Made by a program: the position numbers and the translations under genes
Assembly: GCA_951406725.2 (NCBI GenBank)
Contig: OX597843.1
Coordinates: 15,438,001-15,502,000, forward strand
Direction of reading: 5' to 3'
Source: Octopus vulgaris
Lineage: Eukaryota
DNA: 64,000 bases
Shown here: piece by piece, positions 6,926-47,001 of the stretch
Layout of the letters: each line of letters begins with the position of its first letter
Numbering within the stretch: the first letter of the stretch is position 1
Notes under the pieces: generated by a model
Told to the model about the DNA's origin: nothing
Databases searched by the model: none
The model's input: only the letters and a program-made list of their open reading frames with translations

Positions 6926-7861
6926 TACTTAGGGTCCATGTAGTTTCATAGGCAAAAAAGAATGTTCGACTTCTTGCCTAGAGCGATCCCTTAGCAATAT
7001 CATATCTTCTCCACTATTTCAGTATTACATGTTAAAAGTGAAACAAAAACATTTCTCTATTTTATGTCAGATTCTTTCACTTTCACAATAAAAAAATAGT
7101 AACAATTGAATTATATGTAGTAAGTAATAATTAAAATCAAACTAAAGTATAATATAATCATAACATAACAAAAGTAAAAATAGCAATTGGTATAAAATTG
7201 CATCAATGGTTTGAACTTGAACAAGTGGTTTCTCATGAATGGGAATAAATTAAAAATAAAATTAGCGAGCAGAAATGGAATAGTCCAGATGGATAATAAA
7301 AAATTAAATTAAAGAAAAGACTATTGTCTATAAAGTATACAATGTAGAGAAAAAAGAAGATTTGAACACACGGAGGAAAGCACCTTCGAAAAGTGTCTTG
7401 GTGCGACTATGAAAGGTATCTAATCAGAGGCGGTAAATTCGCCACAATAGAAGCAAGGTTCGAATCAATGGAGCGCGCAAGGGAGTACTCGACTTGAACT
7501 TGCAAAGTGGAAATATTTTATTTTTACCTTTATATCTGGGACGTAGTACGTCCCAGAAAAAAATTTTTAATACCCCCCACCCCCCACCCCAAGTAGAGGT
7601 AGGCTGGATTGTAGCTACACTTCTATACAAGAGGGAGGACAAGATACAATTGATCGAAATTACAAGAGACGGGCTAACAACTCCAGTCTGTTATATATTT
7701 TGAGTATTGTTATCACTAGCGATATCAAGATATAACTTTGTATTTTGCATTTTATGTGTAGATGTATATAAATAGATGTACATGTAATATGTACACATAT
7801 ATATACACATGTATATATGCACTAGCACTATGACCCGGCAATGACGGGTCTTTAATGCTAG

Positions 7862-7898
<37 letters not shown>

Positions 7899-7984
7899 GT
7901 ATGTATATGCGTAAGCTCGCAGGGAATGAAGCCAATATATTCCGCTGGATGTGTAATGTCAGTATGCATACTCGACAAAGTGTA

Positions 7985-8786
7985 AGTACCTTGAGAGAAA
8001 TGTTGGACCTAAGAAGCATCAGTTGTGGTGTGCAAGAGAGATAACTGTGCTGGTATGGTCATGTGGCGAGAATGGATGTGGATAGCTGTGTGAAAAAGTG
8101 CCACACCCTAGCAGTTGAGGGAACCTGTGGAAGAGGTAGACCCAGGAAGACCTGGCATGAAGTGGTGAAACACGACCTTCAAACTTTAGGTCTCACCAAA
8201 GAAATGACTAGCGACCGAGACTTTTGGAAATATGCTGTGCTCAAGAAGACCCGGCAAGCCAAATGAGACCATAACCTCGTGGCCTATGCCAGGGGCGTAA
8301 CCAGCTCACTTATGTGTACCTTTTCTTTCTTTGGACACTAAACTCTGCTTGCGAAGACCTGTTGAGGCAAGTGAAATCAAAATCAATTTCAATGACTGGC
8401 ATCTGTTCTAGCAGGGTGTAAAGAGCACCATACGAGTGTGATCGTTGCCAGAGCGGCTAACTGGCTTCTGTGCCGGTGGCACGTGAAAGGCACTATTCGA
8501 GCGTGATCATTACCAGCATCGCCCTACTGGCACTTGTGCCGGTGGCATGTGTAAAAAGATTCGAGCAAAGTTGTTGCCAGTACTGCCTGACTGACCCCCA
8601 TGCCAGTGGCACGTAAAAAGCACCCACAACACTCTTGGAGTGGTTGGTGTTAGGAAGGGCATCCAGCTGTAGAAACTCTGCCAGATCAAGATTGGAGCCT
8701 GGTGCAGCCATCTGGTTCGCCAGCTCTCAGTCAAATCGTCCAACCCATGCTAGCATGGAAAGCAGACGTTAAACGATGATGATGAT
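7985..8786 (+). mobile_element. RTE-type LINE 3' end (ORF C-terminus plus 3' UTR with (GAT)n tail)
   Basis: WYGHVARMDVDSCVKKC...GRGRPRKTW motif; ends aaacgatgatgatgat. Confidence 0.85.
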
Positions 8787-8956
8787 AGATAGATAGATAG
8801 ATAGATCTAATTACCTGAGTATAAGTCACATGATTATACAGAGTGGGGCAAAAATAAGTCAACAGTTAAAATGAAAATACGTACAATACTCATTTATTTT
8901 TATCAACAAAATTAAAAGCTACAATAAAAGTATTATTATGATTAATGATTAACAAG

Positions 8957-11236
8957 GGGAAGCCTTGTATACCACATCAATGGATACTTTCGGCATGAGA
9001 GAAAGGCAAAACCCAGATTGGGTCAATGCTGGGCTCTCAGAGCTGGAGCCAGTTATCGAAGCAAAGCGTGCAGCTCTGATGCAATACAAGAGTGACTCTT
9101 CTACAAAGTCACTCGAAGAACTCAGAAAGGCAAGAAATAAAACCCAACTGACAGCCAGACGCTGTGCAAATAGGTATTGGCAGGAAATCTGTCAGAGTAT
9201 CCAGTCAGCTGCTGACAGGGGCGACACCCGTGGGAAGTATTCCGGTTTGAAGAAGGCCCTCGGTCCATCCGCAACCAAGTCAGCCCCTCTGAAATCAACT
9301 ACTGGAGATCTCATCAGGGATCAAAGCAAGCAAATGGATAGATGGGTGGAGCACTACCAGGATCTCTACTCACGGGAGACTACAGTAGCTGAGGCTGCAA
9401 TCGAGAGTGTCAAGATCTTGCCAGTCATGTGAGAACTTGACAGTCCGCCATCTATAGCAGAGCTCACCAAGGCTATTGACTCCCTAGCAAGTAACAAGGC
9501 TCCGGGAAAAGACGGCATCCCCTCAGAGATCATCAAAGCCGGCAAAAACACCATCCTGCTTCGGCACCTTCATGAGATTCTGTGTCAGTGCTGGGAAGAG
9601 GGTACAGTCCCTCAGGATATGCGGGATGCTAACATCATTACGCTTTACAAAAACAAAGGTGACCGTGGTGATTGTAACAATTACCGTGGAATATCTCTTC
9701 TAAGCACTGTTGGAAAGACCTTTGCTTGCGTTATCCTGGCCAGGCTACAACTACTTGCTTCTCGAATCTATCCGGAATCGCAGTGTGGCTTTAGAAGAAG
9801 CTGATCAACTATTGACATGATATTCTCCATACGCCAACTTCAGAAGTCCAGAGAGCAGAAATGCCATTATATATGGCCTTCATTGATCTGACAAAGGCCT
9901 TTGACTCTGTAAGTAGAAAAGGCCTCTTCATCCTGCTCCAAAAAACAGATGTCCACCAAAGCTGCTGAGGATCATCAAATCTTTCCATGATGATATGCAA
10001 GGCACCATACAACACAATGGATCAACATCAGCCGCCTTCCAAATAAAAAACGGAGTAAAGCAAGGTTGTGTCCTTGTTCCTACATTATTTAGCATCTTCT
10101 TCGTTGCTGCTCTCACATGCCTTTCAGACATCAAATGATGGAGTGTTTCTGCAGAGTAGAAGTGACGGGAGACTGTTCAGTCTCTCGCGCCTGCGTGGCA
10201 AGACCAAAATAAGAAGCGTCCTGATCAAGGAAATGATGCAGCTCTGGTATCACACACAGAAGAAGCCCTACAAAGGCTCATCAGCTGTTGTGAGCAGGCA
10301 TGTAAAGACTTTGGCTTACCTATCAGCCTCAAGAAGACCAACGTCATGGGTCGGGCTACACCGGACATCCCAAACATACATATTGGAGACCACAGATTAC
10401 AGGAGGTGGGGAAGTTTACCTATCTTGGCTCTACCGACACCTACAACCTATCCCTTGATGCTGAGCTCAAAATACGCATTGGCAAGGCATCTGCTGTGAT
10501 GCCCCAACTCTCCAAATGGGCATTGGACAACTATACGCTGACCAAGACCACAAAAATGAAGATCTACCAGGCATGTGTACTTAGCACTCTACTGTATGGA
10601 AGTGAGACTTGGACACTATACACACGCCAAGAGCGTCGCCTAAACATCTTTCACCTGCGCTGCCTCTGGAAAATCCTCCGCATCAAATGGCAGAATCATG
10701 TCCCCAACGAAGATGTCCTCAGCAAGCAGGAATACCAAGCATGTTTGCACTCCTCACACAAAGACGTATGAGATGGCTTGAGCATGTTAGCCGTATGAAA
10801 GATGGCAGAATCCCCAAGGACATACTCTACGGAGAGCTTGCTAGGGGTACTAGGTCTGTGGGTAGACCGTTCTTACGTTATAAGGATGTTTGCAAAAGGG
10901 ACATGAAGGCCTGCAACATCAAAATTAGCGGTTGGGAGGCAGTTGCCGGCAACCGTGGGGAATGGCGATGTACCGTAAAAGAGGGAATACAAAGGAGTGA
11001 CAGAGAGAGAGAGGAGAAATGGAAAGACAAGAAAAGACGTCAACAAGAGACTATGGCATTACAACCAGCCAGGAACAGTCTTCGCTACATTTGCGGTACC
11101 TGCCAGAGGGAGTGTTTGTCCAGGACAGGACTACACAGCCACAGCAGGAAATGTATCAGGACATGAAATGTAAAAGCCGGACTGGACTACTTTATGCGCA
11201 ACTCCATTTTCTCCCGAGACAAAAAGGATGCCAACA
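8957..11236 (+). mobile_element. 5'-truncated RTE/BovB-like LINE, decayed RT ORF with C-terminal C2H2 finger, 19-bp target-site duplication
   Basis: Motifs KAPGKDGIP, YKNKGDRGDCNNYRGISLLS, PESQCGFR, AFIDLTKAFDSV, GVKQGCVL, LLYGSETW, CGTCQRECLSRTGLHSHSRKC across frameshifts. TSD atgattaatgattaacaag at 8938-8956 and 11237-11255. Confidence 0.95.
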
Positions 11237-12152
11237 ATGATTAATGATTAACAAGCAGTACTTATTCTATCAATCTCTTTTGCCGAACCACTAAGTTAAA
11301 GGGATGTAAACATATCAGCATCGGTTGTCAAACGGGGACAGTGGACAAACACAGACATATATATATATAATATACGATGGGCTTCTTTCTATGTAATATA
11401 TGATGGGCTACTTTTTCTAGCAGGTCGTGCAATCACAACCTATGTTGCTGTAAAAACACCTCTGGTTATTAAAGAAGGGTTTTGTTAGGGGAGTGGACCC
11501 AGAAGTTGTTGTTCACAAACAGCAGCAGTAATTTTCTTCAGCTGAATACACGTCATTGATTGGTTTAAATTACCCAAATACGACAACTTTAACACAAAAT
11601 AACTTCTAAAATACAAAATTTTGTCAAAAACGTTAAGAGTAAACTTTGTTTTACCAGTTTCCAAAGTTTCAAAGTGTTTAGTTAAAAAAAAATTATTTAA
11701 AAAATCTGTCGGACAGATTGAAAAGTTCCAAGAAATAAAAAGAGAGAAAAGGAAGAGAAAATGTGAGGTAAAGCAGTGTAGATGGAGGGGAAGGGTCGAT
11801 GGTCCACTTACCCCAGGACAAGTGGGGTACTCAGCCACGCCTCATGGTAATAACTGTGGTGTGCTGCTGAGAACTGCCACTCCACCTGGCAGGACTCGTT
11901 TATCCCTATTTTGAGGTGGAAAACTTTGTGGTCCAAAAACTCATGCCATGGCAACGGCAACCAGCACAAATGCACAGCAGCCAGCCAACCAGACCCCAGT
12001 TATGAACTCATTTGCATACAGCCAATCTAATTTATGAGTGCATAACAAGTGATGGGCGATAAGATAAGGTCCCTTGGGTAAGGGATGACCATGTTTCTTT
12101 TCTCTGTTAAGAATATTTGTTGTTCTTGTTCTTGTTTCAACCATGGTGTTTC

Positions 12153-12563
12153 TTATCTCTTTATTACCCACAAGGGGCTAAACACAGAGGGGACAAACAA
12201 AGACAGACAAAGGGATTAAGTTGATTATATCCACCCCAATGTGTAACTGGTACTTATTTAATCGACCCCAAAAGGATGAAAGGCAAAGTCCACCTCGGCG
12301 GAATTTGAACTCAGAACATAACGGCAGACGAAATACCTATTTCCTTACTACCCACAAGGGGCTAAACACAGAGGGGACAAACAAAGACAGACAAAGGGAT
12401 TAAGTTGATTATATCCACCCCAATGTGTAACTGGTACTTATTTAATCGACCCCAAAAGGATGAAAGGCAAAGTCGACCTCGGCGGAATTTGAACTCAGAA
12501 CATAACGGCAGACGAAATACTGCTAAGCATTTCGTGCTAACGTTTCTGCCAGCTCTCCGCCTT
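12153..12563 (-). mobile_element. SINE family A, dimeric (internal 3' duplication)
   Basis: Two copies of cccacaaggggctaaacacagag...gaatttgaactcagaac, ending in the reverse complement of the aggcggagagctggcag head. Confidence 0.85.
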
Positions 12564-13217
12564 ACCATGGCTGTTTCTGCGTAGTTATTTGTGTTGTTGC
12601 TAGCACATCCCCCTCTACCCACATTCTTCCCATCCACATCTTTACCATATGGGGCCCTATGTGTGATGTATTGTCATTAACCAGCTGAATACAAGCACCA
12701 AATGCTTCTATGCAACAGTGGTCAGATGGCCTTCAGTTTCTGTCACAATGTAAAAACAATGGCGTAATCCTTGCAACAGACTTGGATGAAGTTGGATTTC
12801 ACCAGCAAAGAAGCACACACGTCCTACGTAAAACACATTCAATACAGTGGAAATAAGAGCACCACAAGAAATCTGTTGTGGTGGACACCCCTCAGGTGAG
12901 TAGTGGACTGGTCCACTGCTAATAAATAGTGGACTGTCTCAATCAGTAAGATCACTCGATGAAGGCATGCTATTCGGACCAGTTCCACAGAGACGATGGA
13001 ATATGTCGTCACAATGGGACATATCAGTGGCGACGAGGATTTGTGGCTCACGCAGTGAAAAAGATTTTGAAAAGAAAAACTGCCTGATAAAAGAGGAACT
13101 CTAACATAGAACTGAACTACACACAGTGAAAAATAATTTGAAGGATTTAAGTCAGGTCACTATATATAGCAGCGCTACCTGTAATAACAGTAATTGGTTC
13201 TACCTGCAGCATTTTGA

Positions 13218-14125
13218 TGGGATGCTGCAAATATTCTGCTCAATGCCACAGATTTGCTTGTCAGTTGTTTGACCTTAACCAGTTGACCATGTCCCTTAGT
13301 GACTGAAGATATGTGCATCTCTGATCATGAGTAGAAGTAGTGGGGGAGCATCATAGCCGTGTGTTGGGAGGAATTCTTTGGGGTTTGAATAATTTACCTC
13401 TGGTAACATGGGTGTTTCATTCAACATCCTTAAACAACCCTTATTCAGGGACCTTTTGAGTGGGATGGGTTACCCGATCAGAGGAAAGTTCTAACTGGGC
13501 CCCACCTGCAAGGTCATGTGCTATTTATCTTGATATGAAATCATGTCGTGCACATATGGTTGTGATGCATGTACCTGGTACACCCTTATCAGATGGGTAG
13601 TCATGATGGGTATACTGGGCTTTGTATATTTTACCCCAGTGTCACTTTGATACCAGGCAGTGGCTCTCATGTCTTCTGATCTTAACTGATTGGAAGTGTT
13701 ATCATGTACATTGTTTTGTCTTGGTATAAAAGATGGGCTATAGCAAATATTCTGCTCAATACCACAGATTTGCTTGTCAGTTGTTTGACCTTAACCAGTT
13801 GAGCATGTCCCTTAGTGGCTGACGATATGTGCATCTCTGATCATGAGCAGAAGTAGTGGGGGAGCATCATATCCATGTGTTGAGAGGGATTCTTTGGGGT
13901 TTGAATAATTCACCTTTGGAAACATGGGTGGTTTGTTCAACATCCTTCAACAATCCTTATTCAGAGACCCTTTGAGTGGGATGGGCTACCCGACCAGAAG
14001 AAAATTATAAGTGGGCCCCAGCTGCAAGGTCATGTGCTGTTTATCTTGATATGAGACCACCATGTCACACACATATGGTTGTGATGCATGTGCCTAGTGT
14101 ACCCTTATCAGACAGGTAGTCATGA
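13218..14125. repeat. Tandem partial dimer (~515-bp period) of an unclassified dispersed repeat
   Basis: gcaaatattctgctcaat...acccttatcaga is repeated from about 13227 and about 13743. Confidence 0.75.
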
Positions 14126-14474
14126 AGAAATCCATGCAAATTCTGTGTGGAACAAAAAAATTATTCTGGTTAGAAGAAAAAACTGAAAAAGAATTGACGA
14201 TGCATTTAAAGTGAGTCATGTCAGAAGATTTCAGATGTAAGCAGATACCATCTGTTGAAATCGAAAACAAACCAGTTGCTAAGAAAGTTAAAATGGACAG
14301 AGAAAATGCAAGCCATTTTGTGATTGAGGATATTGAACAAATCCTCCAAGAAAAGACTCCAGATGAAATGTCGATGGAAGTGACTTGGCAGAATCTGAAC
14401 TCAGAACATAGCTACAAACGAAATACCAGTAAGCATTTCATCAAGCATCCTGACAATTCTGCCAGCTCACTGCC

Positions 14475-14476
<2 letters not shown>

Positions 14477-14551
<75 letters not shown>

Positions 14552-14552
14552 G

Positions 14553-14583
<31 letters not shown>

Positions 14584-14754
14584 TGATGGTGGTGATGATG
14601 ATGATGGTGTGGTGGTGGTGGTGGTGGTGGTGGTGGTGGTGGTGGTGATGATGATGATGATGATGATGATGTGGTGGTGGTGGTGGTGGTGGTGGTGGTG
14701 GTGGTGGTGGTGGTGATGATGATGATGATGATGGTGTGGTGGTGGTGGTGGTGG

Positions 14755-14806
<52 letters not shown>

Positions 14807-14877
14807 GGTGGTGGTGGTGGTGGTGGTGATGATGATGATGATGATGATGATGGTAGTGGTGGTGGTGGTGGTGGTGA

Positions 14878-14911
<34 letters not shown>

Positions 14912-14985
14912 GGTGGTGGTGATGATGATGATGGTGGTGGTGGTGGTGATGGTGGTGGTGGTGATGATGATGATGATGATGATGA
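14477..14985. repeat. (TAA)n/(TGG)n/(TGA)n compound trinucleotide microsatellite
   Basis: Seen directly. Confidence 0.95.
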
Positions 14986-15211
14986 TTTCAAATTTTGCCA
15001 CAAGGGCGGCAGTTGTGGGGGAGGAGATGAGTTGATTACATTGATCTCAACGGTACTTATTTTATCGACCTGAAAAGGACAAAAGGCTCAGTCGATCTCG
15101 GCAAAATTTGAACTCAGAACAGAGTAACAGGTGAAACACCACTAAGCATTTTATCCAGCGTGCTAACAATTCTGCCATCTTACTGCCTTAATGATGATGA
15201 TGATGATAATG

Positions 15212-15264
<53 letters not shown>

Positions 15265-15269
15265 CCATC

Positions 15270-15585
15270 AATGACTAATGTTTTCTGGCTTAAAATTAGA
15301 AACAGAAGGGTTTATCATAGCAGCCTAAGATCAATGCCTACCTACAAGGAACTACCAGGCCAACATATCAAAGAACGGCAGTAGCCCAACATGTCGTGTA
15401 TGTCAACGACAAAATGAAACCATTGATCATGTTGTCTCCAAATGCAGTCTTCTTGCACCTACAGAGTATCTCAACAGATACGATAGAGCTGCACAATATA
15501 TTCACTGGGTAATTTCCAAAAACCTGGATTTGCCCCATGAAAAAAACTAGTGGGAACACAAACCAACTCCAGTGCTTGAAAATGT
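15270..15585 (+). mobile_element. R4/Dong-clade non-LTR retrotransposon fragment (CCHC / pre-RLE region) adjoining (TAA)n
   Basis: Reads LKLETEGFIIAA*DQCLPTRNY...CRVCQRQNETIDHVVSKCSLLAPTEYLNR...AAQYIHW. Confidence 0.8.
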
Positions 15586-15937
15586 AAATTCAGGGCTCTG
15601 TGCCACCTCATATACACATCTGCGGGGGACGTGTGTCTCCTTGTCTTGATATTGTGTGATTGCTGTAAATGAATGCCATTCACTTCCAACCTTTTGCAAA
15701 CACAGGTCTGGCCACTGGGGTAGTATATTACCTGACTTGAAAATAGGTGAGGGTTGGGGACAGGTGAAGCGTCCAGCCAAAGAAAATCTGTTTCAACACT
15801 GTCTGACCTATGCAATCATGTAAAGTTGATGTCAGAATGAGGATGATGATGGTGATGATTATAATATATGTGTGTGGATGTGGATGTGTGTATATATATA
15901 CATATATGTATAAGTGTGTATGTATGTATACATATAT

Positions 15938-16322
15938 AGGAGTGGCTGTGTGGTAAGTAGCTTGCTAACCAACCACATGGTTCCGGGTTCAGTCCCACTG
16001 CATGGCACCTTGGGCAAGTGTCTTCTGCTATAGCCCTGGGCCGACCAATGCCTTGTGAGTGGATTTGGTAGACGGAAACTGAAAGAAGCCTGTCGTATAT
16101 ATGTATATATATGTATGTGTGTGTATATGTCTGTGTTTGTCCCCCTAGCATTGCTTGACAACTGATGCTGGTGTGTTTATGTCCCCGTCACTTAGTGGTT
16201 CGGCAAAAGAGACCGATAGAATAAGTACTGGGCTTACAAAGAATAAGTCCCGGGGTTGATCTGCTCGACTAAAGGCGGTGCTCCAGCATGGCCGCAGTCA
16301 AATGACTGAAACAAGTAAAAAA
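15938..16322 (+). mobile_element. Near full-length tRNA-derived SINE, family B
   Basis: Box A gtggctgtgtggtaag and box B gggttcagtccc; tail ...ccagcatggccgcagtcaaatgactgaaacaagtaaaa. Related copies at 17683-18070, 27240-27510, 45760-45950 and 60460-60905. Confidence 0.85.
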
Positions 16323-16559
16323 AAATGAATATATATAAATATAAAAATGGAACAAAAGTGCGAAAGAGGACATCAGAACATTGGGACAGATGGACGACAC
16401 AAAGGCAGACAAGAAAAACAACAATTAGAAGGACAGGCAAAAAAGGACGGGTCATTCGTGGCCTTCTTTCCTCTGTCAAGCTCCAGAAGTCACGACCATT
16501 TCAGGCAGTTACCCTTGAGATGGTTTGATCTGGTTACCCCCAAACAAGTCTTGCAAACA

Positions 16560-17065
16560 ACTTGCACATGCAAGTGCTACCAGTTAAAAGCTCCGTATAC
16601 CGGAAGCTAGCAAGTGTATGGGTCATCAGGAGAGAATGCGCGCCGTTTCGGGGCCTACCTCTCGACGGCATCCAATGCGCACCAGCCCCCCTCACTGATA
16701 TGAGGCCCCGCTTGCTAGATCAGCTGGTTATGAAGTTAAACTCAATATCTTTCTAGCCATCACTCATCGTCTCTTTTTAACCAAATCCAGTGGCCTTCTC
16801 TACTGTAGATTGGATATCAGTCATGGTGGTATTGACTTTACGATGAGTTAGGCCTAACGATAACAACAGTCGTCTCACGCTGTACCCAACAAACCCTCTA
16901 CATCCGACTTCGATAGGAAAATGTTCTGCTTTCCAGCCTGCGTCTTCACATTCCTCGAGGAGGTTTTCATAACGGTTCAATTTTCGAGCCCGAGCGGCGT
17001 CCATATTATCTTCATGAGGAACCGTTAGCTCGACTATATTTACAACTTTCTTTCTTTCTTTCACA
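16560..17065 (-). mobile_element. RLE-type (HERO/NeSL-like) non-LTR retrotransposon 3' fragment
   Basis: IVELTVPHEDNMDAARARKLNRYENL...FPIEVGCRGF restriction-like endonuclease motif. Confidence 0.8.
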
Positions 17066-17278
17066 TTACATCAAAATATCTGTTTTTTTCGTAACTGGGA
17101 TGGGAAAGAAAACCTGGCACTGTGTACAATATTGATAATAAGGAGAATGAAGAATTCAAATTTTATGTTTATTTACAGTTGGTTTATTAAAAACACATAA
17201 AGTTTGGATGTTCAAATTCTTCATTCTCCTTGCTATGAATATTGTACTTTACACTCTTAAGTAGCCAAGAAATAAACT

Positions 17279-17378
17279 NNNNNNNNNNNNNNNNNNNNNN
17301 NNNNNNNNNNNNNNNNNNNNNNNNNNNNNNNNNNNNNNNNNNNNNNNNNNNNNNNNNNNNNNNNNNNNNNNNNNNNNN
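17279..17378. other. Assembly gap (100 N)
   Basis: Seen directly. Confidence 1.
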
Positions 17379-17420
17379 TCATAACAAAATATATAATGGC
17401 TGCGAAGTCTTTTCGCTTAC

Positions 17421-17529
17421 CTTACAACCTGCCATTGTTTGCATCCCGACAAGGAAGATAAAATTAGTGACAGCCAAAGAAGAGCACAGGCTTACTAAAA
17501 TCTTCGAACTCATTAAATCCCATGGATTT
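17421..17529 (-). CDS. aGPCR exon: ICL1-TM2-ECL1
   Basis: tttcag|(R)NPWDLMSSKILVSLCSSLAVTNFIFLVGMQTMAGCK|gtaagc; phase 2 to 0. Confidence 0.9.
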
Positions 17530-17838
17530 CTGAAATAATGAACAAAACCAATTAATATTTCATTTATTGAAACAAACTCTAAAACAATCACTCAATGCAT
17601 AAATAATAAAGTACGACTGTGTGTGTTGGTGGCTGGCTCAGTCAGAAAATAAAGGGTATCTTAAAATCAATAAATGTTTTATCTGTGGCTGTGTGGTAAG
17701 GAGTTTGCTTCTCAACCACATGGTTCCGGGTTCAGCCCCACTGCGTACGACCTTGGACAAATACCTTCTATTACAGCCTCGGCTCTATCAAAGCCTTTTG
17801 AGTGGATGCGGTAGGTGGGAACAGAAAGAAGGCGCTTT

Positions 17839-37293: not shown

Positions 37294-37372
37294 CTGAAAT
37301 AATAATAAATACATACATGTACGTCGGTATGTATATGTGTATGTAGATAGCTAGCTAGCTAGATACATACAT

Positions 37373-37427
<55 letters not shown>

Positions 37428-37433
<6 letters not shown>

Positions 37434-37640
37434 ATGTGACCTCGTGTGTACCGTTTGCGATTTTGTTTCCTCCGTCTTCCCTTTTCTGGAACTTTCCTTT
37501 TCCTATGTTTCTGACGAAGAGCTCCGCTCGAAACGTAAAACCCTCCTTCTTCCCTTCCTTCCTGAACCTCCAATAATAATATATTTGTTCCACGTCCTCG
37601 CGTTGTTGTGTTTTCTCTTTGTGTTTTCATGTTTGGATGA

Positions 37641-37645
<5 letters not shown>
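37428..37645 (+). mobile_element. Short (TA)n-inserted element carrying a minimal hammerhead (37507-37541); inverted sister copy at 45510-45710
   Basis: gttt-CTGACGA-a-gagc-tcc-gctc-GAAA-cg-TA-aaac. The sister copy has core CCGACGA. Confidence 0.7.
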
Positions 37646-37691
<46 letters not shown>

Positions 37692-38089
37692 TCGTTTAAA
37701 AGCCGCCCTGTCGATCCTTGGGCCCAACAATGACACTTCATGCATTGAGTACATATTAAATCTTTTTAAACTTGACCGATATTTTTCAAGCAATGAACAA
37801 CTTATTGCAAAGTTGCAGGATAAACAACATCTTTTGTCTTCCCGTTCAGGGGTCAATGCAATATTTTCTGTCTAACCTCCTTCTTTCTCTCTCTCCCTCT
37901 TTCTCTTTCTGTTGACTATCACCAGCGCCACTACCGTTGCTACCTCAACTGCCATACACACATCATTCAGACTTCTGACGCCACCACCATCAATATATTT
38001 GACTTCGTCACTTTCCCCTCCACCACCATCACCACAGTCTTTCACATCGCTTTCTTTCACTGACTGCCCCGGCTACCGCCACCACCACC

Positions 38090-38554
<465 letters not shown>

Positions 38555-39369
38555 AGGGATGTGGAGGGATTTCTTTTGAATTTTAAATGTCTTTTACCAT
38601 TTATTTAGTTAGTTCTTTACCATTGTATAGCCACTGGCATGAGACATGAGTTCAAGGGTGGTGGCCTCTTTTAGGTTGGGGAAAATAATGAAAAACAGGA
38701 TGCGGTGCGGTCACCACTAAAACGATAGTATTCAGTATGTCAGCTGCAGGAATTTCCGTCAAAGAGACAAAGTTAAACAAAGCTGTACTTCTTCTCCCTC
38801 TTTCTCTCTCTTTTGTTATTACTCCCACTGCCACCATCAACATTACTACTTTTAATAAAACATCAACGCTCCCTAAATTTCTTTGTCTCTCTCTCTCTCT
38901 CCCTCTCTTTTTATTTCTCTCTCTGTCTTCACCATCGCCCTCACCGTCTCTATGTCTACTATTACTCTCACTGTTTCATGAGGAATAGTAGGAGTGTCAT
39001 TGAATAGTGAGAGAGGGGTCTAAGTGTGACACACTGACACACAGAAATTAGTTTTCGCAATTATTATATTATATATATACTTATATGATTAGTTAAAACA
39101 AAAATCACCGGAATTTTTGTAGACCAAGTTAATCTAACTGGTTTAAAGATAATTTTGTTCTAATACCAGTAATCTAAATTGCACCTTTTCAATAAAACTG
39201 ACCATTGACTGACCAGTTAAACTTCCATTTACCGTTAATGGATTCCAATGTATCAATACTGATGCGTATAAAACATAATTCCATCACTTTAGTATGGCTG
39301 CTATCATATCCTTGTTAATTAAGGCGGCAAAGTGGCAGAGACGTTAGCCCGCCGGGCGAAATACTTCGT

Positions 39370-39740
39370 GGAGACGCAATGGCTCAATAGTTAGGGCAGC
39401 TGACTCGTGATCATAGGATCACGGTTTCGATTCCCAGACCGGGTGTTGTGAGTGTTTACTGAACGAAAACACCTAAAGCTCCTCGAGGTTCCGGCAGTGG
39501 GTGTTGGTGAGCACTGCTGTACTCTTTCAACACAAATTTCTCACTTCCGGTTTTTGTTGTATTTGTATTTCAAAGGGCCAGCCTTGACACACACTGAATC
39601 TTGCTGAATCTCCCCGAGAACTACATTAAGAGTACACATGTCTGTGGGGTGCTCAGCCACTTGCAAATTAATTTCACGAGCAGGATGTTCCGTTGATTGG
39701 ATCAACTGGAACCCTCATCGTCGTAACCGACGGAGTGCCA
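39370..39740 (+). mobile_element. tRNA-derived SINE, family C
   Basis: tRNA-like head gcaatggctcaatagttagggcagc...ggtttcgattccc followed by an unrelated body. Confidence 0.65.
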
Positions 39741-39924
39741 TAAAATATACATATAGATTTCACAAATGACATCCAAAGACTCTCTCTATAGAAGACTAAT
39801 AGTGCTAAAAAAAATCAAACATGGGCTCCGGTGTCTATAGAGGGGGATTTTTTCACAAGGTAAAGAAAGGCTTAAAGAGGAATCAAGTTGATTGGATAAA
39901 CAAATTAGACTCACCAAATATATT

Positions 39925-40318
39925 CTTTTCTACTCTAGGCACAAGGCACGAAATTTTGGGGAGGAGCTAGTCGATTACATCGACCCCATTGTTTAACTGG
40001 TACTTAATTTATCGATCCCCGAAAGGATGAAAGGAAAAGTCGACCCCGGCGGAATTTGAACTCAGAATGTAAAGACATGAAATACTAATTTCTTTACTAC
40101 CCAAAAGGGGCTAAACACAGAGGGGACGAACAAGAACAGACAAACGGATTAAGTCGATTATTTCGACCCCATTGCGTAACTGGTACTTACTTAATCGACC
40201 TTGAAAGGATGAAAGGCAAAGTCTACCTCGGCGGAATTTGAACTCAGAACGTAACGGCAGACGAAATACCACGAGGCAGTTCGCCCGACGTGCTAACGAT
40301 TGAGCCAGTTCGCCGCCC
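39925..40318 (-). mobile_element. Family A SINE, dimeric
   Basis: Same core as 12153-12563. Confidence 0.8.
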
Positions 40319-40773
40319 TGACACATCAAATATGTGAAATATATTCAATACATTAAATACAAAATATGAATATATGTATACACGTGAAACGAGGGAGAGC
40401 AAAATATATTTGTATTAAAGTAAAGAATGCCATCGAAGACAGAATATTAGGTAATATTTTTTATCTGATTTTGAAAACTTCAATAAATTAATTTTTTGTT
40501 TCAATTATTTTTAGATTCAAATATAGCTCAGGATTGGATTATCATAGGATTATCATAAGATTCAAATATAGCTCGGGATTGGATTATCATAGCTAAAATA
40601 TAGGGCATTCAGTATGGTTGAAAACAGAATTAGTGAAGAAGGCTAGAACTACAAGCGGGTTAATAAAAGTTGGCCTTAAAAATATATTCGTCCAGTACCG
40701 TGGCTTGCCCTCTTTAGCATGTAAGAAATCCACATGGTAGGATTCTCAACGTATATAAACTTTTATACACACT

Positions 40774-40821
<48 letters not shown>

Positions 40822-40827
<6 letters not shown>

Positions 40828-42003
40828 TTATAAATGAGGGGGAAAAATTGATATTAATTTAATGATACCATTAATTTAACACCGAGTGGCTTAGCACAAA
40901 AAACTACGGAGAAAATACAAATTTATACATTAATTATTAGATCGTTACCACTATGTAGATAACTCTAGTGCTAAAAATAGCTCCGATAGTATAGCCACAG
41001 TAAAAGATGTTTCTAATTAGAAATAACATACATTTACCGGAAGGAAAGTGAAATATAACGAATAAATAGATTGACCCTGAACAAATTGTTTCATTACTAA
41101 TGTAATATGTAATTTTACTTACATAAACATCTATAAATCATCAGCAGAGGTTTGTCTTAAATACAATTTATTAGACCAACACAAGCATTTTTAGTTATGC
41201 CTCAAATTCCCCGCCAAAAGCATGCTAAGACTCTTTGGAAACGTATGCTGCATCAAATAAAATATTTACTGCTGCATAATTAAATTTATAAATTTATAAA
41301 TGAGGGTGAAAAATTGATATTAATTTAATAATACCATTAATTTAACACCAAGTGGCTTAGCACAAAAAACTACGGAGAAAATACAAATTTATACATTAAT
41401 TATTAGATAGTTACCACTATGTGGATAGCTCTAGTGCTAAAAATAGCTCCGATAGTATAGCCACAGAAAAAGATGTTTTCAATTAGAAATAACATACATT
41501 TAACGGAAGGAAAGTGAAATATAACGAATAAATAGTTTTTTTTTGTGCTAAGCCACTCGGTGTTAAATTAATCGTATTATTAAATTAATATCAATTTTTC
41601 ACCCTCATTTATAAATTTATAAATTTAATTATGCGGCAGTAAATATTTTATTTGATGCAGCATACGTTTCCAAAGAGTCTTAGCATGCTTTTGGCGGGGA
41701 ATTTGAGGCATAACTAAAAATGCAATTGGTTAAACCGCACGTGTTTTTGACGCTCGTGTTGGTCTAATAAATTGTATTTAAGACAAACCTCTGCTGATGA
41801 TTTATAGATGTTTATGTAAGTAAAATTACATATTACATTAGTAATGAAACAATTTGTTCAGGGTCAATCTATTTATTCGTTATATTTCACTTTCCTTCCG
41901 TTAAATGTATGTTATTTCTAATTGGAAACATCTTATTCTGTGGCTATACTATCGGAGCTATTTTTAGCACTTGAGCTATCCGCATAGTGGTAACGATCTA
42001 ATA

Positions 42004-42006
<3 letters not shown>
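40822..42006. mobile_element. Foldback element 1: ~1.5 tandem 466-nt units plus an inverted permuted unit; degenerate hammerhead on each strand
   Basis: tgaggg..aaaaattgatatt at 40835 and 41301; 41540-42005 is the reverse complement. ctg-CTGATGA...GAAAcaatttgTTcag at about 41789-41863 (+) and about 41075-41149 (-). Confidence 0.8.
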
Positions 42007-42066
<60 letters not shown>

Positions 42067-42068
<2 letters not shown>

Positions 42069-42600
42069 AATTAAGGACTGAACACGAAAAGTGGACAGTC
42101 AACATGCTAGATATAGACGTCAAATCGCCCTTCTCCACAAAACGTCTATGTTCTCAGATCAAACTCAACACCAAACCAAAACAATAAACAAGTGAAAAAT
42201 ATACGAAATAAATATTTACCCATGTACTAAATTTAGTTTCGGCTGTTATTTTCCGCAAGGAAAAGTGCAGCCATCATCAGCATGCTGATGATGGCTGCAC
42301 TTTTCCTTGCGGAAAATAACAGCCGAAACTAAATTTAGTACATGGGTAAATATTTATTTCGTATATTTTTCACTTGTTTATTGTTTTGGTTTGGTGTTGA
42401 GTTTGATCTGAGAACATAGACGTTTTGTGGAGAAGGGCGATTTGACGTCTATATCTAGCATGTTGACTGTCCACTTTTCGTGTTCAGTCCTTAATTGGTA
42501 TATATAAATATTTTAATCTTCGGATTCTTTCTTTAATATGCTAGACCACTGGTTCTAATTGATAAATATCAATTTTTACCCTTAATTTAATTTTATAAAA
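42067..42600. mobile_element. Foldback element 2: perfect 432-bp palindrome (42067-42498) with a hammerhead starting at the axis
   Basis: 216-bp arms with no spacer, axis ca|tg at 42282/42283. Confidence 0.9.
42281..42344 (+). ncRNA. Type I hammerhead ribozyme motif (mirror copy on - strand at 42221-42284)
   Basis: catg-CTGATGA-t-ggctg...cagcc-GAAA-ctaaatttag-TA-catg; predicted cleavage after GUA at 42340. Confidence 0.75.
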
Positions 42601-42621
42601 ATTATATATATATATATATAT

Positions 42622-43637
42622 ATTAACAATTAAGGAACGGCCATAATAGGCCATTCACCCACTAGAAATAACAGCCAAAGCTTCTACCGCAAATAAAGAT
42701 CAACTCCGTAAACAGGAGAAAATTAAAAAAAACATTTACCCTGTAATTTCTTGTACGGTATACCGTTTCATCTGCTGTTTAATGGTAAACTAACCTGATT
42801 AAATTAAATCAAGCCAATCTTCCATAAGCCCTCAGATTCTTCAGCAAGAAATAGCTCAAGTCGGAACAGATATTTACACGAGGCATCTCAGAACCTTGCC
42901 AAGGCAATATCTGACCTAAAATTTTCAAATCGTCGCAACTCGCGCCAAATTTATCGGCAGCAAATAAGCCGTCGATTCCATTACGGAATTAACCAAGAAA
43001 TTCATAATTAATCAATATAGGGTGCCAAGAAAAATTTTGTAGAATTTTTTTGCCACCAGCGGCCTAGTGGGAAAAAATTAAATAGTCATAGACCATTTTT
43101 AAGTTCAACATTAACAATTAAGGAACGGCCATAATAGGCCATTCACCCACTAGAAATAACAGCCAAAGCTTCTACCGCAAATAAAGATCAACTCCGTAAA
43201 CAGGAGAAAATTAAATCGTCGCGAGTTGCGACGATTTGAAAATTTTAGGTCAGATATTGCCTTGGCAAGGTTCGAGATGCCTCGTGTAAATATCTGTTCC
43301 GACTTGAGCTATTTCTTGCTGAAGAATCTGAGGGCTTATGGAAGATTGGCTTGATTTAATTTAATCAGGTTAGTTTACCATTAAACAGCAGATGAAACGG
43401 TATACCGTACAAGAAATTACAGGGTAAATGTTTTTTTAATTTTCTCCTGTTTACGGAGTTGATCTTTATTTGCGGTAGAAGCTTTGGCTGTTATTTCTAG
43501 TGGGTGAATGGCCTATTATGGCCGTTCCTTAATTGTTAATGTTGAACTTAAAAATGGTCTATGACTATTTAATTTTTCCCACTAGGCCGCTGGTGGCAAA
43601 AAAATTCTACAAAATTTTTCTTGGCACCCTATATTGA

Positions 43638-43645
<8 letters not shown>
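42622..43645. mobile_element. Foldback element 3: 488-nt unit plus ~105-nt repeat of its start plus an inverted permuted unit
   Basis: attaacaattaaggaacggcc at 42622 and 43110; 43220-43645 is the reverse complement and reads through the unit junction. Confidence 0.85.
43311..43417 (+). ncRNA. Type I hammerhead ribozyme, intact core (mirror copy on - strand at 42746-42852)
   Basis: 8-bp helix I atttcttg/caagaaat, CTGAAGA, helix II atctg/cagat, GAAA, palindromic helix III cggtataccg, GUA cleavage after 43409. Confidence 0.85.
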
Positions 43646-43668
<23 letters not shown>

Positions 43669-43678
43669 CATACATATA

Positions 43679-44960
43679 CGGGGGACGCTCAATAAGTAAT
43701 GCCCCGTACCCATTTGAAATTGTTTGATCTAGCTGAAATTTTGCATGTGCAATTATCCATATCTCTACAGATTAAGTAGTAAATTACAGCTCTGTACTAA
43801 TTGTGGTCTCTGATTTACAGATGTTTGAACTGAGTCAAGTGTGAAATGGAGCCTGTTGAGTGTCGAGCAGTGATCCAGGTTTTGTATTTGAAAGGACGCA
43901 CACCACGGGAGACTTTTGATGAAATGAAAGTAACTTTTGGTGATGATGCCCCATCATATGATCTTGTAAAACGCTGGCATCATGAATTCAAACATGGTCG
44001 GAACTCTGTGGAAACAGCTCCCAGATCTGGTCGCCCCCTTCTGCCATTGATGAGGCATTTGTCCGTCAAGTTGAGGCTGCCATTTTGGAAGATCGACGCA
44101 TAACTATTCGCCAAATAGCCCATGAGGTCAAGATTAGTACCGGGTCTGTGGAAACTATCATTCATGACCATTTGCATATGCAAAAGGTGTCTGCCAGATG
44201 GATTCCCAGGTTGCTCACACCTTTCCAGAAGCAAGAACGCGTCGAGGGCTCGAGGATGAATTTGGAGATGTGCCAAGAAGATGAGTCAAAATTTTTCAAA
44301 AGACTGATTACACAGGATGAAATCTGGGTCCATCACTATGAACCAGAGACCAAAGCCTAGTCAATGCAGTGGAAGCACCGTGACTCACCTCCTCCAAAGA
44401 AGGCAAGGGTGCAGCCCTCCGCTGGCAAGGTCATGCTCACAGTCTTCTGGGACCAGGACGGAGTAGTGATGACAGATTTCCTGGCCAAGGGTACCACAAT
44501 TGCAGGAGCCTATTATGCTTCACTTTTGAGGAAATTAAGAGAAGCTATCAAAATCAAGAGGCGGGGCAAGATCAGCAAAGGCATCCTCCTCCTTCAGGAC
44601 AACGCTCCGGTCCACAACTCGCGTGTCGCCAGATCAGAAGTACAGGCGTGCGGCTATGAACTCCGCCCCCATCACCCTACTCTCCTGACCTTGCACACTC
44701 TCATTTTCACCTCTTCCCAGCCATGAAGTTGTTTTTGAAAATAAAGCGTTTCCCAGATGATGCAGCCTTGATTTCTGAAGTCACGTCGTGGTTGGAGGAC
44801 CAAGCTGGGGTCTTCTACAAAATCAGTCTCCAGAGCGGCATCAAACGATGGGAGAAATGCGTAACTCTGGGTGTAGAAAAGGACTAATAACTGTGCCAAG
44901 TTTCGTTGCTCTACTGTAAAGGGAAGTGTGTCAGGGGCATTACTTATTGAACGCCCCTCG
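43679..44960 (+). mobile_element. Full-length (~1.28 kb) mariner DNA transposon with a disrupted transposase
   Basis: TIRs cgggggacgctcaataagtaatgcccc / ggggcattacttattgaacgcccctcg with TA on both sides. HTH (VKRWHHEFK..RSGRP), TQDEIWV and LLQDNAPVH motifs and a degenerate YSPDL motif; stop at 44358-44360 plus frameshifts. Confidence 0.95.
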
Positions 44961-44977
44961 TACATATATATATATAA

Positions 44978-45017
<40 letters not shown>

Positions 45018-45059
45018 ACATACATATACATACATATACATATATATACATATGCATAG

Positions 45060-45111
<52 letters not shown>

Positions 45112-45253
45112 ATGCGTGTGTATATATAAATTAAGGTAGCTATCAGGAATTTAGAACCAACACGAAAGTTAATTTGCAGTCACTGGATATCTGTTACATG
45201 ATGACGCTTAATTGTGTGCATATGCAGCTATAACACTTTCAAACATTGGAAAT

Positions 45254-45312
45254 ATTATACGGAAGAGAGGAGTAAAATTTAAATTATTTTAATCTCGAAA
45301 CGCGTATATAAT
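45254..45312 (+). ncRNA. Degenerate hammerhead motif (core CGGAAGA) in a (TA)n-flanked element, 45128-45475
   Basis: attata/tataat helix I, gagg/tctc helix II, GAAA-cgcg-TA. Confidence 0.45.
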
Positions 45313-45472
45313 TAATCCAGGTCGTGTTGATTCATTATTCTGCTCTTTGCCTTCGTAAAAAAAGTATGTTTACCGTCATGGAGATTCTTAGTGTAGCGGA
45401 AAAGGAATTTTAACTCCTATTTCTAATTTCGGTATGTGTTGAAGCAGTTAGCTGAACCCTAATTATAATTAC

Positions 45473-45513
<41 letters not shown>

Positions 45514-45969
45514 ATCCAAACATGAAAGCACAAAAATACACAACGCGAGGACGTGGAACAAATATAGTATTATTGGACGCCCAGGAAAGAAGGAAAGAAG
45601 GAAGGTTTAACGTTTCGAGCGGAGTTCTTCGTCGGAAACATAGAAGGAAAGATCCAGAGAAGGGAAGACAGAGAAATAAAAATCACCAACGGTACACACG
45701 CGGTCACGTTTTGCATGCAAATATGTATATATATATATATACATGTGTGTGTATGTGTGTGTGTGTTTGTGTGTCTGTGTTTGTCTCCCAAGCATTGCTG
45801 GTGTGTTTACTCCCCGTCACTTAGCGGTTCGGCAAAAGAGACCGATAGAATAAGTACTGGGCTTACAAAGAATAAGTCCCGGAGTCGATTTGCTCGATTA
45901 AAGGTGGTGCTCCAGCATGGCCGCAGTCAAATGACTGAAACAAGTAAAAGAGAGACAAAAGTGAGAGAG

Positions 45970-46034
<65 letters not shown>

Positions 46035-47001
46035 CCTGGTTGGTTTTAAAATGTGTGTTAGCTACCTTCAATATTTTATAATCTTCACATTGCCATTTTG
46101 TGAAATCAATCCCTAATTCCTATGGCATTCTCAATGATACTGAGAGGCGTGAGTTAGCCTCCACCAGCCGTAATGGAGTGAGCATTGCTGATGAGTATTA
46201 ACTTCCTATAAGAGATTACCATGCTAATCTAATCCATCTGGCTTACCGTGGGGAATGTTCTCCCCACTGTCAGTGCAAACAGACCATATGTCTTTTTGTG
46301 GCTCAGGAGTCTATGACTAATATTTCTAATAATGCTGGTGCTCACTGCACTCTTTTCACACTTAGTGACTGTGAATTATTTCCTTGTTGGTTTCAAATTG
46401 CCGATAGCCACCACAATTTATATATATATACACACCCATATATGTGTGTGTATATATATATGTGTGTATATATATATGTGTGATGTATATGTATGTATAT
46501 ATATATACATATATATATATACAGCAATTTAATAAATAAAACATATGCATACATACATACATATATGTACATACCTACATCTATACGTATATATACATAT
46601 ATATATATGATTACAGGACACCACAAAAAAGCGTAGAACACAACGAGAAAAGAAGACAAAAAATCAAACAAGGAAACAGACTTTTTCCAACAACGAAAAA
46701 CAGGACAAACAATACAAGGAAATTCCCTTCTTCAGCTGGCCCTGTTTCGACTCAATGCGTATTTTTATATATATATATATATATACAGTTCTCTCTGTAT
46801 CTTTATATGGGTTTGTGTGTCCTTTGTATAATAAAACATGGATAAAACACTTAAACATTTCATTGAATGTATGAATTAATATATTCTGGGTCACAAGTAC
46901 AACACTGTTGATTATTGTGACGTATAATACATGCGATAAAATCGAATGTTTGGAACAAAAGCAAATAAATTTGAATAAATGTGTTAGAAGCATTTGCTTA
47001 C

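Follow-up and report, generated by a model that had tools for sequence, protein, structure and literature searches.

Hammerhead retrozyme insertions with paired 3' ends in (TA)n repeats of Octopus vulgaris, likely made by a Penelope-like enzyme

Animal non-LTR retrozymes are AT-rich, non-coding tandem units that carry one type I hammerhead each and are dispersed as monomers to multimers, and they have been proposed to be mobilized by Penelope-like elements (PLEs) via circular RNA (Cervera and de la Pena, 2020, PMC7229834; Li, 2026). Circular retrozyme RNAs are expressed in coral, mussel, and axolotl, where PLE enzymes have likewise been proposed. Described PLE insertions, like those reported below, are often head-to-head, truncated at the 5' end and extended at one end, and the (TA)n target is common to our elements and to Hydra, Naiad, and Neptune PLEs (Craig et al., 2021, PMC8557442; Arkhipova et al., 2013, PMC3846280). 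Octopus Naiads were reported as (TA)n-targeting, and Craig et al. (2021) list Hydra-1_Obim for an octopus. Self-priming on an antisense template was suggested for head-to-head PLEs (Arkhipova et al., 2013), and the tail at one end was ascribed to endonuclease resolution of an intermediate (Craig et al., 2021). In vitro, the Anolis PLE Poseidon cuts and extends both target strands, its reverse transcription begins at two internal sites bounding the genomic tail, and a dimer is predicted (Frangieh et al., 2024, PMC11167929). In the sections of these papers cited here, the origin of tandem and inverted PLE insertions and the mobilizer of retrozymes are called open (Craig et al., 2021; Cervera and de la Pena, 2020; Li, 2026).

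The window analyzed here is a stretch of 64,000 nt from Octopus vulgaris (assembly GCA_951406725.2, genome size 2.8 Gb), contig OX597843.1, positions 15,438,001-15,502,000. On its minus strand, residues 342-359 of the adhesion-GPCR (aGPCR) protein P0002 are matched at 47054-47001 and residues 359-411 at 37295-37137. Since these consecutive exons flank the region of interest, the elements described below sit within one intron of ~9.7 kb, and the assignment to an aGPCR intron made by an earlier sequence-only reading is confirmed. The nearest named proteins are adhesion GPCRs labelled Octopus vulgaris or O. sinensis, with exons running on the minus strand; a search with a single aGPCR exon returned no match. 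The intron holds three inverted-repeat elements, 1 (40824-42007), 2 (42067-42603), and 3 (42622-43645), with (TA)n between them, and no ORF of at least 80 codons is listed within 40822-43645. They represent three non-coding repeat families, F1, F2, and F3, respectively, with units of ~500 bp. In the following list, A and B denote two alternative 3'-end sites.

37296..47000, minus strand: host intron of the adhesion-GPCR gene (approximate bounds, from flanking exon matches)
40776..40823, no strand: (TA)n target microsatellite, left flank (TRF and sequence)
40824..41538, minus strand: element 1 (F1) B arm, 1.46 units with a local period of 466 bp, 3' end running from site B into (TA)n
41539..42007, plus strand: element 1 (F1) A arm, ~1 unit, 3' end running from site A into (TA)n
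42007..42066, no strand: (TA)n separating elements 1 and 2 (TRF)
42067..42284, minus strand: element 2 (F2) A arm, starting at the central CATG and holding hammerhead 42284-42221
42281..42603, plus strand: element 2 (F2) B arm, the A-arm sequence plus a tail of ~100 nt, holding hammerhead 42281-42344
42603..42622, no strand: (TA)n separating elements 2 and 3, the left portion of the empty site in locus L059
42622..43215, minus strand: element 3 (F3) A arm, 1.22 units, holding hammerhead 42852-42746
43210..43237, no strand: element 3 central junction, a small templated hairpin linking both 5' ends
43220..43645, plus strand: element 3 (F3) B arm, 0.88 unit
43643..43678, no strand: (TA)n target microsatellite, right flank (TRF)

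The arms are asymmetric in all three elements, with a short end (A) opposite an end that is ~105 nt longer (B), and element 2 is a perfect palindrome around CATG. The locus has a further copy (L059 on contig C31, an allele or a paralogue), which is 98% identical and carries elements 1 and 2 with centres identical to those of the window; at the position of element 3 it has an empty (TA)n of 14 units, and the filled site shows ~10 and ~13 TA units. Element 3 is therefore the youngest of the three.

When the entire 64-kb window was scanned for type I hammerheads under strict criteria, four matches were found, all of them in elements 2 and 3 and on both strands; 300 dinucleotide shuffles of the region gave none. 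These matches, together with two weaker motifs in element 1, are the following.

43311..43417, plus strand: F3 type I hammerhead with 8-bp helix I, long helix II, palindromic 10-nt helix III, and GUA site; predicted cut after 43409 (strict scan)
42852-42746, minus strand: F3 hammerhead in the element 3 A arm; predicted cut after 42754 (strict scan)
42281-42344, plus strand: F2 hammerhead in the element 2 B arm; predicted cut after 42340 (strict scan)
42284-42221, minus strand: F2 hammerhead in the element 2 A arm; predicted cut after 42225 (strict scan)
41149-41075, minus strand: weak F1 hammerhead-like motif with GUU site; predicted cut after 41080
41789-41863, plus strand: weak F1 hammerhead-like motif with GUU site; predicted cut after 41858

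The motif singled out earlier as the clearest (43311-43417) indeed folds as a hammerhead: the predicted structure of 43305-43423 has an 8-bp helix I, unpaired CUGAAGA and GAAA, a 4-bp helix III, and the GUA site (z -5.0). In the window copy of element 2, helix I is cut to 4 bp, the rest having been lost at the palindrome centre (z -2.2). Element 1 failed the strict scan; a core and helix I are present, helices II and III are weak, helix III is of odd length, and the fold is unremarkable (z -1.0). The sequence-only reading had placed a type I hammerhead on both strands of each element, which stands for elements 2 and 3 and holds only weakly for element 1. With a helix II region of 33-68 nt, the motifs are not minimal hammerheads of the PLE type. 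Of 47 Rfam matches at E<=10, none was to a hammerhead family; all were to hairpin or repeat entries. Helix covariation among genomic copies was found in the form of compensatory double changes in helix II, in three locus records of F3 and 11 of F2 (overlapping fetches count twice), and none was seen in F1. The 5' ends of arms coincide with the predicted cleavage site in excess in F3 (8 of 91 arms against 2.4 expected; the second F3 sample alone gave 1 of 30), with no excess in F2 (3/109) or F1 (1/33). This footprint, confined to F3, is weak evidence of ribozyme cutting in vivo. Folding predictions for the three complete elements, made for both strands, pair the hammerhead core with the opposite arm; because the antisense arm is also transcribed first, the host pre-mRNA is predicted to stay uncut. 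Moreover, no window copy has two hammerheads on the same strand, and monomer release is accordingly not expected from any of them. On these grounds all three are predicted to be dead ends.

First-look genome searches gave 1256 candidates for F1, 985 for F2, and 1287 for F3, of which 40 were scored in each family. Exact 20-nt hammerhead motifs occur in 226 copies for F3 and 107 for F2, and reversed controls gave 0. We found 118 cut-to-cut F3 monomers, nearly all of 483-501 bp; 58 are 485 bp long, and 42 of the 118 are identical. F2 and F1 yielded one cut-to-cut monomer each, of 518 bp and 497 bp. Tandem arrays reach 14 units, show no clear higher-order periodicity, and occur in near-identical form on many chromosomes with exact A/B ends; F3 copies are 97-100% identical, and in one array (L045) unit variants are interspersed in mixed order. 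From site B the unit passes through ~250 non-coding nt to the next hammerhead without an ORF, and none of the mapped arms continues into an ORF. The three families have one layout in common. F1 and F2 also have 51 nt in common near site B (69% identity, E 1.5e-4), and F2 and F3 match in 12 of 13 nt at site A, which is not significant alone. The F1/F2 block and the single layout suggest that F1-F3 are either remotely related or have converged as clients of one enzyme. Separation of the elements by (TA)n was correctly seen before, while their supposed lack of relationship is not complete in view of this block and the common layout; similarly, they are non-autonomous ribozyme retroelements inserted into (TA)n, as had been supposed, and fall into three families instead of one.

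Judged by their sequences, which are dispersed, tandem, and ORF-less with helix II compensation, F1-F3 are animal retrozymes with a PLE insertion signature. Their units (485-518 bp) exceed the 150-450 bp given for retrozymes in the consulted parts of PMC7229834, and they differ from those retrozymes in being mostly head-to-head with two fixed ends in (TA)n: the word "inverted" occurs 0 times in the main text of PMC7229834 and once in the text of Li (2026), inside a reference title. A matching PLE terminal repeat was not found for them in 40 PLE loci, whereas 24 of 57 Xenopus retrozyme families possess one according to the parts of the literature consulted. On the other side, F1-F3 have the PLE insertion signature and are not autonomous EN+ PLEs, as neither the elements nor their units have an ORF.

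The paired A and B ends are the main feature of these insertions and were absent from the first reading. Arms were mapped in 78 BLAST-ranked loci plus the window (first sample) and in 62 further locus records chosen by exact hammerhead pattern (second sample), with the same end windows in both; the A and B windows were fixed after the first sample had been seen. Head-to-head insertions are the majority of those sampled, with their 3' ends in (TA)n. In both samples the geometry is always divergent, with 5' ends inner and 3' ends outer, and no tail-to-tail pair occurs in either. In the first sample (TA)5 adjoins 134 of 146 3' ends. These ends fall at two sites, both AT-rich and target-like, counted in nt from the predicted cut: ~131 and ~237 in F3, ~163 and ~264 in F2, and ~152 and ~258 in F1. 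The A-to-B spacing is ~105 nt, the F1 and F2 positions being blurred by TA-like unit sequence, and the exact 3' end varies by several bases and grades into TA-like sequence. An A end paired with a B end was found in 45 of 57 two-armed insertions of the first sample and in 24 of 31 of the second. After removal of duplicated insertions (L050 and the second copy of L098), 86 two-armed insertions comprise 69 A+B, 1 A+A, 0 B+B, and 16 in which one or both ends lie at another position, an A+B excess over 50:50 with p ~1e-19. All three window elements obey the rule. Single arms that end at either site and are truncated 5' within (TA)n are frequent as well; (TA)4 is present at the truncated 5' end in 36 of 57 single arms.

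Next to the outer ends, the relation between the arms was analyzed. Neither arm is an in-register copy of the other in 25 of the 69 A+B insertions, element 3 among them, and either arm can exceed the other, the A arm being longer in 39. The centre differs at nearly every insertion: duplicated loci are the only ones in which both centre and arm lengths are in common, and three other locus pairs have similar centres and different arms. Many centre junctions contain small inserts that repeat nearby sequence. Inserted bases were scored at 26 of 47 resolved junctions, a count partly inflated by mismatch to the F1 and F2 references. Near-symmetric centres number 15 of 86 against ~5 expected, and this excess over chance indicates that snap-back does occur. 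Microhomology of at least 2 nt was found at 12 of 47 resolved centre junctions (of 57), compared with 17-19% by chance, a difference from which we draw no claim. The difference per 100 bases between arms of the same locus is 0.14 in F3, 0.79 in F2, and 1.85 in F1, and between arms of different loci 1.02, 1.66, and 7.62, respectively. Arm likeness within a locus is not proof of a single template, because one change in element 2 (42143/42422) is present on both window arms and on neither L059 arm, an apparent case of arm-to-arm conversion. A proof of single templates by private variants (24 shared against 140 found on one arm only) was dropped, as it is confounded by such conversion.

We propose that the F1-F3 insertions are two-armed retrozyme structures that were probably made by a Penelope-like enzyme priming reverse transcription from both cut ends of a (TA)n. 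Arrays would be transcribed and cut by the hammerhead into monomers of ~500 nt, which would then be circularized. A Penelope-like RT-endonuclease dimer, for which the Hydra clade is the leading candidate, would cut both (TA)n strands, and cDNA synthesis would begin at site A from one DNA end and at site B from the other. Each cDNA would be copied round the unit for a variable distance, from 0.1 to 14 units, and the two free cDNA ends would be united by end-joining with small templated inserts. Alternatively, one cDNA might snap back and anneal to the other, giving a perfect palindrome such as element 2, and extension of one end alone would leave a single 5'-truncated arm. Two primings, at A and at B, would account for the paired sites, for arms that do not fit inside each other, for the new centre at nearly every insertion, and for single arms, and snap-back onto the other cDNA would account for symmetric centres flanked by both an A and a B end. 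Arms of more than one unit require an uncleaved multimer or a circle, between which the data do not separate. In a stricter version, twin priming is obligate: a Hydra-type PLE dimer would sit on one circular RNA with its active sites at A and B and roll from both (TA)n ends. This version is a tentative one, to which we give somewhat less than an even chance.

The points for a single priming come from the centres, the likeness of the arms, and the insertions compatible with copying. If a single cDNA (or an antisense template) folds back, is copied, and is joined to the far target end, the 15 near-symmetric centres, the perfect palindrome of element 2, the small hairpin at the centre of element 3, and the two to seven times greater likeness of arms at the same locus find a ready explanation, and 44 of the 69 A+B insertions fit copying. 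Self-priming predicts, however, identical ends on both sides, which were found once in 70 insertions, and it is at odds with the 25 insertions in which neither arm lies inside the other and with the freedom of either arm to be the longer. We consider it decidedly unlikely; the F1-F3 data fit two primings better than the PLE self-priming model. Sites A and B might instead be places where an endonuclease cuts a preformed DNA intermediate, such as an inverted concatemer. This would likewise pair an A end with a B end around variable centres, the sites are AT-rich and target-like, and the present data do not separate priming from cutting; on the other hand, PLE RT starts coincide in vitro with tail ends (PMC11167929, in the parts consulted), the ragged ends merge with TA-like letters, and single arms with either end and a 5' end truncated in (TA)n are common, and we consider resolution by cutting unlikely.

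For foldback or MITE-type DNA transposons with left end A, right end B, internal deletions, and the hammerhead as a passenger, the A+B pairing would be trivial, and long inverted arms of tandem units and a TA target would be in keeping. Yet the same centre is not passed on from locus to locus, even in F3 with its 97-100% identity, there are single 5'-truncated arms without a second end, RT-encoding elements show the same pairing, and helix covariation points to selection on RNA, so this account is highly improbable. Only slightly better placed, and very unlikely in its turn, is an origin of the units without circular RNA, as terminal-repeat stumps of an autonomous PLE or as satellites spread by local unequal crossover. 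Local amplification from PLE ends was suggested in the consulted parts of Li, Clavereau and Pollet (2026, bioRxiv 10.64898/2026.07.22.740005), and the mixed order of unit variants in L045 fits it; the ORF-free ~250 nt between site B and the next hammerhead, the spread of near-identical arrays with exact A/B ends over many chromosomes, and the failure of any mapped arm to run into an ORF speak against it. An assembly artefact carries a negligible probability. Perfect palindromes can come from chimeric fold-back reads, and the symmetric change at 42143/42422 could be due to polishing, but the presence of elements 1 and 2 in L059 with unchanged centres means that the foldbacks are not chimeric reads, a concern raised with the first reading; the arms also differ in end point and sequence, and the rule holds over dozens of loci, with 86 two-armed insertions elsewhere.

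For the enzyme that would carry out the two primings, the genome was searched with two Hydra-type proteins and one Neptune-type protein from beside F loci, and PLE loci were drawn from the best 121-150 of 7,161-17,636 candidates. Linkage to a PLE ORF was not found, and no terminal repeat clearly homologous to F1-F3 was found in the 40 PLE loci compared with the three monomers, so the enzyme partner is deduced from shared behaviour. F-like matches of 60-74% identity lie among TA runs in two of the loci (L110 and L115) and look like separate old insertions. An ORF adjoining one F locus (L026) has the DKT motif given by Craig et al. for Hydra PLEs. Members of the Hydra clade are characterized by DKT in place of DKG, an endonuclease lacking CCHH, a CxCx5C linker, a hammerhead, and a (TA)n target. 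Open frames of the Hydra type have 778-934 residues in this genome, with many relatives. DKT is present in all four Hydra-type proteins checked, which have a single Cys in the GIY-YIG stretch; CxCx5C was found in L128 and L134 and not in L102 and L119. Two Hydra-type proteins had no Pfam match, and a homolog search returned 90 proteins, mostly unnamed, many with PF26215. In the hammerheads of the Hydra-type elements helix II is long and helix III is a 6-nt palindrome, which in L128 (CAATTG) is identical to helix III in part of F1. These elements terminate in (TA)n at either of two positions, ~60 and ~215 nt past the cut, leaving a tail of ~150 nt, and an A+B pair was present in all seven loci in which both arms were resolved by script (21 loci scanned) and in L101 as read by eye. 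Neptune-like elements are abundant too, including a young family with a minimal hammerhead; its 20 matches, a small sample, have one class of end ~100 nt past the core, and the sequence retrieved around them contains no inverted partner. The Hydra-type PLEs of this genome, with DKT, a C-terminal GIY-YIG-like domain, hammerhead, and (TA)n, thus have layout and A+B pairing in common with F1-F3, which differ from those examined in encoding nothing, in having no terminal-repeat sequence match, and in tail length. The odds that the partner is a Hydra-clade PLE are roughly even.

The insertions described for PLEs elsewhere offer a further comparison. In the consulted sections of PMC8557442 and PMC3846280, tails measure 30-40 nt, compared with ~105 nt in F1-F3, and the tail is an optional feature; in the ORF-less F1-F3 it follows a near-strict, counted either/or rule. 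An AT-rich target and two sites bounding the tail are common to F1-F3 and Poseidon, as far as the data in the consulted part of PMC11167929 go. The bulk sequencing of Poseidon reported there shows no strand difference in start site and leaves the sites unpaired per event, whereas F1-F3 have opposite sites at the two ends of one insertion.

Repeated insertion into one microsatellite, as proposed in the sequence-only reading, is not habitual for these families. Another F-like copy is carried by 2 of 266 adjacent TA runs compared with 10 of 700 distal TA runs, several of the distal matches belonging to the insertion under study or to a duplicate of it, and the idea of a TA hot spot was dropped, as adjacent runs are not richer than distal ones. 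The 64-kb window has 25 TA runs of at least 8 units, and (TA)n remains on either side of every insertion. We read the stacking of three families, which is unusual, as a rare chance event.

In the literature searched we found no paper that gives the A/B pairing rule or these families, which may be listed unnamed in the repeat library of PMC13282606 or in the supplements of Li (2026); the main text of PMC13282606 has 0 mentions of ribozyme, hammerhead, or Hydra. A "tail at one end" is the known qualitative form of the A+B rule. The rule makes a sharp, countable prediction that distinguishes twin priming from self-priming, and since one genome provides the 485-nt unit, the (TA)n target, and intact candidate ORFs, it can be tested directly. 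For the octopus, such insertions introduce long double-stranded RNA into introns, where it is predicted to silence the ribozyme that it carries. If true, obligate twin priming would give one explanation for the head-to-head arrangement of PLEs and retrozymes, their tail on one side, and their tandem arrays, and it would replace the self-priming model; these insertions would then be the first genomic evidence of PLE proteins mobilizing ribozyme circles in trans.

The three hammerhead-bearing elements lie in an intron of an adhesion-GPCR gene, and the following features were annotated around them in the window:

8953-11166, plus strand: fragmented LINE-type reverse-transcriptase reading frames (called by eye from the ORF list)
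17418-60120, minus strand: adhesion-GPCR gene
43834-44726, plus strand: remnant of a mariner-type transposase, matching Pfam Transposase_1 at E 3e-23

The mariner-type remnant directly adjoins the right side of element 3. Several near-identical relatives of the host gene are found on contigs C30 and C31 of the same genome, suggesting a duplicated gene cluster. When the palindromic element 2 was compared with its counterpart in L059, the second copy of the locus on C31, we observed an identical substitution in both window arms (42143 and 42422) that neither L059 arm carries; this paired change may reflect either arm-to-arm conversion within the palindrome or assembly polishing.

Differences were also seen at two arrays of family F3, to which element 3 belongs. 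At L045 (G000:C1:195859300-195869299) an F3 arm of 14 units mixes two variants that alternate without clear period, perhaps the product either of template switching between two RNAs or of later conversion. The array L022:3000-4600 was compared with contigs from runs X1, X2, X4, and X7, whose RNA origin is a guess. A>G or T>C changes account for 22 of the 31 listed differences and are frequently clustered; 19 of these 22 are not present among ~160-205 genomic copies of the unit. Such a pattern is expected when double-stranded RNA undergoes A-to-I editing, which may be the cause here if the runs are indeed RNA.

Penelope-like elements (PLEs) of two types were also found in this genome. Long open frames occur in several Hydra-type subfamilies (L101-L120, L127-L140), some of which are arranged in tandem, repeating every 3.6 kb. 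Long Asn-rich stretches separate their RT from the endonuclease, as has been described in bdelloid Penelope elements. A Neptune-like family (L121-L126, L086) is very young, with 98-100% identity among the best 121 of 17,636 candidates scored; it carries a minimal hammerhead with the core UUGAAGA, and its copies end at (TA)n.

Additional hammerhead families, not related to F1-F3, occur at L103, L109, L110, L116, L118, L120, L129, L134, L136, and L140, and some of them are tandem (565-bp spacing in L116). Many more retrozyme-like families are thus present in the octopus genome beyond F1-F3.
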